Below, one piece after another: positions 11,271 through 14,200 of a DNA stretch of 64,000 nt. Every line of letters begins with the position of its first letter. Positions within the stretch are counted from its first letter, which is position 1. Source of the DNA: Pocillopora damicornis (lineage: Eukaryota); contig NW_020844647.1 in NCBI RefSeq assembly GCF_003704095.1, positions 124,001 to 188,000 on the forward strand, read 5' to 3'. Under the pieces are notes generated by a model. The model searched no databases. It was not told where the DNA came from and saw only the letters and a program-made list of their open reading frames with translations. The position numbers and the translations under genes were made by a program.

Positions 11271-14200
11271 ATGAGCAGACATCTCGCCTCTTTTCTAAGT
11301 AAGATTTATAAGCTATCTGTACAAAAATTAGAATATTCAGCTGTGTCAAGGCTACTAAAGAATATGGCGGAAGATACCACGTGCAACGCAGAGCAGTTTT
11401 CAGAAGAACCACACAAGACTCAGGAGAAGAACAATGGCTTGAAGAGGTGCCTAGATGATGACAACACGACAGAAGATACTGGGAAAAAGAGAATGAAAAC
11501 AGAACCTGGCGAGAAGGTACAAGAAAATGCTTCTCTAGGTATTCTACAATCAGCCCACATTGAGTTACAGGGAGACGTTCCATTACATTCGAGCTCCCCT
11601 CCCCCCTCCCCCCCACAACCTCATCCCTTAACCCTAACCACCCCTCCCTAGAATGGCAAGATTTGGATAGAGCCTGTCAATATATTTTTTCAAGGAAACT
11701 TAAAATTTTTTTTTCTGCGATGCAACTTTCAAAGGTGCCGGTGAAAAAATGATAGTGACAAAATGTTGCCTTCCACAGGGAGGTTAGATGAAAAATTGTC
11801 TTCAACTTTTGGTATGATTTATGTCACTGATCTGCATATGCCCTAGATCTAGCTTTTGATGAAAATTCAAAGTACTGTTATTTCACAGGCTGCTGATGAT
11901 GAGAAGAATGAAAAAACCTCTATACTTCCAAGAAAAAAGAAGTGTGCACTGCTTTTGTCTTATTGTGGGGCAGGTTACAATGGAATGCAAATGTATGTAT
12001 CACTGCATGGTGTTGATGATCAGGAAAAAAAATTACAATTTTGTTTAACATACAAGATTTAATTTGTACTGGAGACTGCCCTGCATTGCTGATGCAACTG
12101 ATCCCAGTTTTTTTTTTTAATGGAATGATAAGGACTACATGTATGGTCACTATTTTGTCTCACTTGTAGGATTTTAATCTTGTTGTATAATATTTGTATT
12201 GAGGTTGCTACATGTTCAGCATCACCCCAGAGTAATGGTTGTGGTGTACAAAAGTGTTCAGGTCCACTACATGACTTTCAACACAACTTTGTTCTCACAA
12301 GATGAGTTGTGTTTTGTTGTTTTGGACTAGAGAAAAACACAGCCCTAATCTTTGCCAGGGAGTGTTTTAATCAGTAACTATCTGGTGACAAAAAGGGCAA
12401 CATTCGTCTACTTTTTTTTCAAAGAAAGACCATGGGGAAAATGCTCAGGAAGTAAACAGAAGATGGTTGATAATAGAGTAGTGTACTCAAAATTGTATGA
12501 AAGTTTTTTGATTTTAATCAGCTAATTTCATTATCTATTTTTCTTGTCTAGTAATCCTGGTGTTAAAACTATTGAACAAGAACTGGTCAATGCCTTGTTT
12601 AATGCTGAAGCAATAACTGAAGATGGAAAAGCCAACATGGGGAAGGTTGGTCAAGGGTGATTCTCCACAGAATGCTTATCTCTTTAACCTCTAAGAGTGA
12701 CTGGTTTCTAATTTCTCCTTACAGTATCACCCTTGAATCAAATGTAAAGGTTGTGAGAATAAAGAAAATGGCCACCAATTTGCAGAGCTCCTGATTGTCT
12801 AACAAATTCTCCTTTTCAGTGCTATAGGAAATGTAAAGAGAACAGTTTGGAGAATATGATTATCAATGTTAGGTTGTATAGGGTTAATTGTATTAGGTAA
12901 TCAGACTTAATGGAAATATTATAGAAATTGTAATTTGTACGTCATTGCAGACAAATAATGCTGGGTTTAGTCTTTTTCCATTATTGTAAGTAGATACTAT
13001 TTCTTTATTACCAGCATGATAGAAGTTGTTGAGGAATAAAACAGTAACTTTATCTCTGTATTGTTTTCACTCTAGATGTCCTTTCAACGATGTGCTAGAA
13101 CAGACAAAGGTGTTTCTGCCGCAAGACAAGTTGTGTCTTTAAAGATAAGTGTCGCAATAGTTTTTTGTAATCACACTGTACACTGCTGTGGGAACCTGTG
13201 ATTCTCTGCAAGCACCAAGTCTATGACCACCTCTTCCTATAATTATAAGACATAAAAGAATTAAGACTGAGTTTTATTTAACCCTTTAACTCCCATGAGT
13301 GACCAAGACAGAATTTCTCTATACAATATGAATACAATGTTGGGCAGACAAGTGATGAGAATAAAGAAAAATATCATTTATGGAATTATTAGTTAATCCA
13401 ATACCAAATTCTCCAAACTAACATCATAAGAATTGTATGTCAGACAGTAAGGAGAATTACTACAAACTGAGATCTTGGAATTGGAAGGGTTAATCAGCCA
13501 GCTGTCCCTGAAACCCCCTTGCATAAATGTGAAATGTATACCGAATGACTGTTAGTCAAACTGGACTTCATAGGAGCAATTATTATCACCAGCACAATGT
13601 ACTTTGAAAATGTATTTCTCCATTTAGACAGTTCTTTTTGAGTCATTTCTTTGGAACTGTGCATGTACACCTACTGAGTAGCAGATTGCTTTATAGAATA
13701 CTTGCTGTGTACAAAAATTATTATATGTACTGGACCAAATGTTAACTGTTTTTCCTCTCTGTGTGTACATGGTACCATTACAACTGTGCATGTACACCTA
13801 CTGAGTAGCAGATTGCTTTATAGAGTACTTGCTGTGTACAAAAATTATTATATGTACTGGACCAAATGTTAACTGTTTTTCCTCTCTGTGTGTACATGGT
13901 ACCATTGCAGAGTCTCTTGCCAAAGATTAACGAGCATCTTCCACCTGAAATAAGAGTCATTGGTGAGTCAACTTACAGAACCCTTCTGAACCTTTTAGAG
14001 TCAATTAACCCTACATGTACAGTTTTCATTGCATAATTCATCCTCCAAGAGTCAGGAATAAGTAAACAGGATATGGACGGAAAATTTCACAGAAATTTCT
14101 CATACTTGTCAAGTTTTGCACTACAGATGTTCCTTAAATTGTTTTTTGGCAGCCATGAAAAGAACAACCAGAGGCTTTGATGCTAAAGGAAACTGCTCAG

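Follow-up and report, generated by a model that had tools for sequence, protein, structure and literature searches.

An AT-AC intron in the PUS1 gene of Pocillopora damicornis, likely removed by the major spliceosome and conserved among animals

Introduction

Introns with U2-like splice signals but AT..AC ends have been named AT-AC II, and 15 such introns are given for human and 3 for fly (Sheth et al. 2006, PMC1557818). A later human set holds 85 'major AT-AC or related' introns, and most of the known U2-type AT-AC introns are found in one gene family. The PUS1 gene of the coral Pocillopora damicornis raises the question of whether an intron of this rare class also interrupts a gene for a pseudouridine synthase, which spliceosome removes it, and how it has been kept. 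In the window, which here means the whole analysed stretch of 64,000 nucleotides, the initial annotation, made from the letters alone, proposed a U2-type AT-AC intron between exons 4 and 5, and the features on which it relied are all in place: exon 4 ends in AAG, ATAAGT starts at 13145, TTAAC is located at 13869–13873, and a pyrimidine tract is followed by the TAC ending at 13895. No report of an AT-AC intron in PUS1 was found in the full-text literature, although supplements and intron databases may list one, and PUS1 is absent from the main text, as far as available to us, of PMC1557818, bioRxiv 10.1101/2020.08.06.239418, PMC10639083, PMC2831892 and PMC4176328.

Structure of the PUS1 gene

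With intron 4 placed at 13145–13895 the 15 exons form a single open reading frame of 440 residues, and the remaining 13 introns are GT-AG in the gene model (Table 1). The inferred protein shows 73–91% identity to coral PUS1 and 64% to PUS1 of Acropora palmata, and the RTDK catalytic motif together with the orthology to named PUS1 proteins points to a PUS1 of the TruA family. One of eight single exons searched, exon 10, gave a match to PF01416 below the Pfam cut-off, the exons being too short for such a search. Joints in RNA were seen for introns 1, 2, 3 and 5. Both exon 4 and the region 13655–13960 are present in one copy in the genome. Intron 6 contains a 210-nt GTCA microsatellite (14374–14583), followed by exon 7 of only 28 nt (14642–14669). 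Upstream of the gene there is a 20-nt tandem repeat of about 7 copies (8982–9116), and near 9900–10580 the minus strand has exon-like stretches, which suggest a neighbouring gene in head-to-head orientation.

Table 1. Features of the PUS1 locus, with positions in the window.
Feature	Position	Strand	Basis and remarks
PUS1 coding region (TruA-family pseudouridine synthase)	11364..18438	+	Gene model; 15 exons, 440 aa
Exon 4, RTDK catalytic motif	13076..13144	+	Gene model; 1 copy in genome
U2-like 5' splice site, A at +1	13142..13152	+	Pairing with U1 and U11 of the same genome
Intron 4, AT..AC, 751 nt, phase 0	13145..13895	+	RNA joint in X19; contig arithmetic for X17 and X20
Abundant short element, ends inverted, TTAA on both flanks	13279..13493	.	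Inverted repeat; contig depth very high in every run
127-nt tandem duplication, first copy	13655..13781	+	Decoy acceptor AC at 13767–13768
127-nt tandem duplication, second copy	13782..13908	+	Predicted branch point 13869–13873, tract, AC at 13894–13895, 13 nt of exon 5
Exon 5	13896..13962	+	Starts with ATG at 13896; AG at 13909–13910 inside it, the first past the branch point, is bypassed
Intron 14, predicted U12-type GT-AG	17408..18209	+	Sequence only; donor GTATCCTT; CCTTGAC at 17 nt from the intron's 3' end

Splicing of intron 4 in RNA

There are 24 sequencing runs on record, six of them RNA; five of the six RNA runs (X15, X16, X17, X19 and X20) and two DNA-like runs (X1 and X2) were analysed as contigs. 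An RNA contig of X19 joins 13144 to 13896 and thereby skips 751 nt with AT..AC ends, its short side being 30 nt long and two letters at the junction fitting either side; the sample shows differences to the window and is without the 127-nt duplication. This is the junction that had been proposed. The joint was not found in X1 and X2, where both ends are read through without differences, and it is therefore due neither to a deletion nor to an assembly error. Independent contigs of X1, X2, X16 and X19 likewise read 13145 as A and 13894–13895 as AC without differences, and the end bases are therefore not assembly errors.

The joint 13144^13896 also predicts the contig depths of the bins at the two ends. 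For X17, X19 and X20 the predicted depths are 1.16, 5.31 and 1.84 in the donor bin, with 1.15, 5.32 and 1.84 observed, and 20.98, 63.29 and 20.42 in the acceptor bin, with 21, 63.3 and 20.4 observed. An X20 contig of length 597 fits the same joint, and a donor at 13160 fits neither the depths of X17 and X20 nor this contig. Three studies thus speak for the junction, which is seen directly in X19 and deduced from contig arithmetic for X17 and X20. With 7 occurrences of AGATRAGT in the window and 5.0 expected, the donor motif is not above chance, and the proof of an AT-AC intron comes from the RNA joint and the conservation, not from this motif.

Conservation across animals

Orthologous loci were collected from metagenomes with the last 12 codons of exon 4 as the search pattern, which contains no intron bases, and 54 loci were obtained, 37 of which are distinct. 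Eight distinct loci were set aside, seven having no intron here and one a shifted GT-AG intron, leaving 29 that carry the intron. The seven run on in frame; two vertebrate-like and one echinoderm-like locus are genomic, and the other four may be mRNA or intronless genes. The shifted intron is found in an insect-like locus, 4 nt downstream of the AT-AC position.

The donors of the 29 loci are ATAAGT (18), ATGAGT (4), ATAAGC (4), ATGAGC (1), ATATGT (1) and GTCAGT (1). There is thus an A at +1 in 28, T at +2 in all 29, A at +4 in 28 and G at +5 in all 29, while +3 (A, G or C) and +6 (T or C) vary as in U2 donors; most of the loci come from one protostome clade, and the counts are not independent but represent about four independent groups. 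The acceptor could be read in 18 loci, the other 11 being too short or unresolved, and 16 of these end in YAC and two in TAA. A canonical U2 branch motif is present in 8 of the 18 acceptors and was not found in 10. The length of the intron ranges from 61 to 1403 nt, and neither length nor body is conserved.

A quick PUS1 tree, midpoint-rooted, with SH-aLRT support only and many short rows, places AT donors in hexacorals, in an octocoral, in a clade of protostomes close to Priapulus and Potamilus, and in a clade outside Cnidaria and Bilateria, perhaps a sponge or some other early-branching animal. The single GTCAGT donor (L026, match 331–366, minus strand) is nested among AT loci (96), and its acceptor is outside the contig. 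The initial annotation had named an alignment with other cnidarians as a check on the intron, and both hexacoral and octocoral loci have the AT start with G at +5, with no ATATCC. Genomic read-through reading frames (P0004 and P0015/P0127) agree with the spliced form P0037, the query being biased towards read-through frames; the best named full-length match of P0037 is 53%. Judged from these alignments, the AT-AC position is ancient and has been kept across four animal clades.

Some variants were seen along with this. Acropora-like corals (L010, L029, L054 and L024) appear from the alignment to have AT..AA ends with a strong CTAAC branch motif. In the outgroup clade a pair of PUS1 copies (L013/L014 and L046/L047) is found on one contig, separated by about 5.5 kb; each copy has an AT-AC intron, with lengths of 61 and 65 nt. 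P0035, P0036, P0038, P0132, P0133 and P0138 are full-length PUS1 reading frames on long contigs, which suggests an intronless PUS1 in one cnidarian-like group.

Intron retention and the duplicated acceptor

Contigs containing intron 4 are present in all five RNA runs, and introns 1–3 and 5 have little or no cover, although contigs give no levels. The depths of intron 4 and exon 5 are 128 and 174 in X15, 149–270 and 275 in X16, 13 and 31 in X17, 18 and 58 in X19, and 4 and 26 in X20, ratios to be taken as a hint only since contig depth cannot rank the parts of a gene. In X17, X19 and X20 no contig covers the 5' part of the intron, a gap that proves nothing. A retained intron 4 brings a stop codon 18 codons into the intron, truncating the enzyme after exon 4. 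The intron also carries the short element of Table 1, which from its resemblance we take to be a piggyBac-type MITE. Related pieces are located near 12680–12830 and 20740–20835, and an AATAAA at about 13360 within the element could permit early polyadenylation of retained transcripts.

The 127-nt duplication, which the initial annotation had missed, spans the acceptor, and its two copies differ by two mismatches. The decoy acceptor in the first copy is identical, and its use leads to a stop at codon 152. The duplication is polymorphic: loop or junction contigs show it in X1, X2, X15 and X16, and X17, X19 and X20 have a single copy, as shown in X19 by a joint that skips 127 nt. No proximal joint 13144^13769 is among the joints listed for X15 and X16, but this absence carries no weight, since contigs drop rare forms and the product here would have an early stop. 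In these two runs, which belong to one study and are closest to the window, exon 4 continues into the intron and the listed joints include no spliced one, and an exon-5 contig of X15 that begins at 13896 is a weak hint of one. The RNA runs with the duplication are those lacking a listed spliced joint, but the effects of genotype and study are confounded here, and it is only a lead that the splicing of intron 4 may suffer from the duplicated acceptor.

These observations might be read as signs of a conserved regulatory (detained) intron, whose weak ends set the output of PUS1, possibly as a feedback. We regard this as a tentative reading that is rather unlikely to be correct. It would account for the intron-4 contigs in every RNA run next to nearly bare neighbouring introns and for the early stop on retention, and an unrelated organism has both a 42-nt retained form in frame (P0127) and the spliced form (P0037). 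A feedback is conceivable since Pus1 modifies U2 snRNA in the branch-recognition region, making pseudouridine 44 in yeast U2 and being able to make 43 in human U2, according to the accessible part of PMC7960923. Contigs cannot measure levels, however, the length and body of the intron vary widely among the loci, it has been lost in several lineages, and mutational trapping as described in PMC2831892 explains its persistence with no function. The regulatory reading adds to the explanation by a trapped intron and does not replace it.

Recognition of intron 4 by the spliceosome

The U1 and U11 sequences used for the donors were taken from the same genome as the window. The donor of intron 4 could form 8 Watson-Crick pairs and one G-U pair with U1 out of 11 positions, which equals the best among the 13 other introns of the gene, and the rival GT sites give 3–4 pairs. 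With U11 it has 2 of 5 pairs, compared with 5 of 5 for the control intron 14; these values refer to a fixed register, used instead of a sliding one that was not discriminating and ranked a GT intron on top. The predicted branch motif TTAAC lies 27 nt from the end of the intron and is followed by 80% pyrimidines. Neither an ATATCCT donor with U11 pairing nor, near the 3' end, the U12 branch point CCTTRAC was found in intron 4; the latter is present in intron 14 and in none of the 18 orthologous acceptors. The AT/AC ends, a U2-like donor except at +1 and the predicted U2-type branch motif and tract match the definition of AT-AC II (PMC1557818), and the intron is therefore likely to be of the U2 type and spliced by the major spliceosome. 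The class assigned in the initial annotation is supported by the U1 pairing, the G at +5 and the lack of a U12 branch point.

That intron 4 is a divergent U12-type AT-AC intron handled by the minor spliceosome seems very improbable to us. The AT-AC ends, the presence of U11 in the genome and the U12-type intron elsewhere in PUS1 would fit it, and two coral loci with AT-AA ends bring to mind the flexible AT-AN ends that PMC4176328 describes for U12 introns. Against it, an ATATCC donor was found in none of the 29 intron-bearing loci, all of which have G at +5, no U12 branch point was found, a pyrimidine tract is present, and the intron is in phase 0. The intron has the terminal dinucleotides alone in common with U12-type AT-AC (A-type minor) introns.

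Alternative junctions and public gene models

An ordinary GT-AG intron, such as one from 13160 to 13910, a micro-exon, or AT and AC bases that are errors or edited can hardly be the real structure: the pair GT 13160 and AG 13910 does keep the frame and gives a protein of the same length (among 89 frame-keeping single-intron joins computed), and the Stylophora gene model uses the AG equivalent to 13910, but the joint in RNA is AT..AC with cover ending at 13144, rival GT donors pair poorly with U1, the end bases are confirmed in four runs and retained RNA contigs read A at +1. The GT at 13149 is out of frame with AG 13910, and neither a joint from 13149 or 13160 nor a micro-exon is among the best-supported joints listed for the RNA runs. 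The six-residue spacing given for human PUS1 in favour of the junction does match P0039, but it does not discriminate between the joins.

It had also been predicted that automated annotation would mis-model the junction, and this holds for part of the public models only, with four of nine named anthozoan models wrong and five right. The models of Acropora palmata, Actinia, Paramuricea, Dendronephthya and Xenia have the right junction. The Stylophora model omits the catalytic exon and takes a downstream AG, the Oculina model has its start at exon 5, and one model from Nematostella continues into the intron. The Desmophyllum model starts one exon later, perhaps for a different reason.

A probably trapped AT-AC intron

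We conclude, with a probability of close to nine in ten, that intron 4 is spliced AT..AC and is likely an ancient, inefficient and trapped intron of the major (U2) spliceosome. In the proposed mechanism U1 would recognize the donor by strong pairing at -2/-1 and at +2 to +8 despite the mismatch at +1, and U2 would take TTAAC as the branch point. Through pairing of the first and last nucleotides, the A at +1 would then lead to the choice of the AC located 23 nt downstream, and the AG that follows after another 15 nt would be passed over; a change of the first base from G to A is rescued by a change of the last base from G to C (Sheth 2006, PMC1557818, as far as the source was available). The state would persist because a single change at either end is expected to be worse and both ends must change together, a constraint that keeps suboptimal introns in place according to the accessible text of PMC2831892. 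The contigs with a retained intron would likely reflect slow splicing, to which the duplicated acceptor may contribute.

Exits from the AT-AC state would be loss of the intron, a probable 4-nt slide to a GT within the donor, and a change to GT as in L026; a single locus speaks for the slide (the insect-like one) and another single locus for the GT switch. Positions +5/+6 of the donor read GT, and secondary donors are reported as common there (PMC6280755, in the part available); the slide is our guess, an independent gain being possible too. The same accessible text of PMC2831892 derives U2-type AT-AC introns from U12 ancestors. For intron 4 a U12 origin finds support in no locus, and the locus with the ATATGT donor (L036) falls within a group of ATAAGT loci. 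The predicted U12-type intron 14 in PUS1 fits the pattern of the sodium-channel genes, yet there is no locus with an ATATCC donor.

Comparison with known introns and significance

PUS1 intron 4 likely joins the known rare class of U2-type AT-AC introns. According to the accessible parts of PMC1557818 and PMC2831892, it shares with the AT-AC II introns of sodium-channel genes (human SCN4A/SCN5A) the AT..AC ends and a U2-like donor with G at +5, both kinds of gene also host a U12-type intron, and the ends are conserved in orthologues. Unlike those introns it is found in non-bilaterians and protostomes, is absent from vertebrate-like loci and has AT-AA variants; dependence on a spliceosome is tested only for the sodium-channel introns, whereas the PUS1 intron is classed by its splice signals. 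The U2-type AT-AC intron of TAF2 in human and Drosophila (Sheth et al. 2006, in the part available) is likewise a single, old intron of a housekeeping gene kept across phyla, and it served as a CENATAC-independent control in bioRxiv 10.1101/2020.08.06.239418, from the portion accessible. The TAF2 intron is kept in human and fly and visible to surveys, whereas the vertebrate-like and insect-like loci of this analysis lack the PUS1 intron or have it shifted.

As a speculation which we hold to be doubtful, the intron could be a splicing throttle predating the cnidarian-bilaterian split, perhaps sensing PUS1's own mark on U2, with the corals carrying the duplicated acceptor as a natural low-splicing allele and loss, the 4-nt slide and the GT switch as three recorded exits. 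The intron breaks some public models of a conserved enzyme, as in Stylophora, which is left with no catalytic exon, and the polymorphic duplication is a natural test of the choice of an AC acceptor. PUS1 offers an old case in single copy in which one and the same position occurs in several natural forms, namely AT-AC, AT-AA, GT, GT-AG 4 nt away and loss, which makes the idea of a trapped intron testable.
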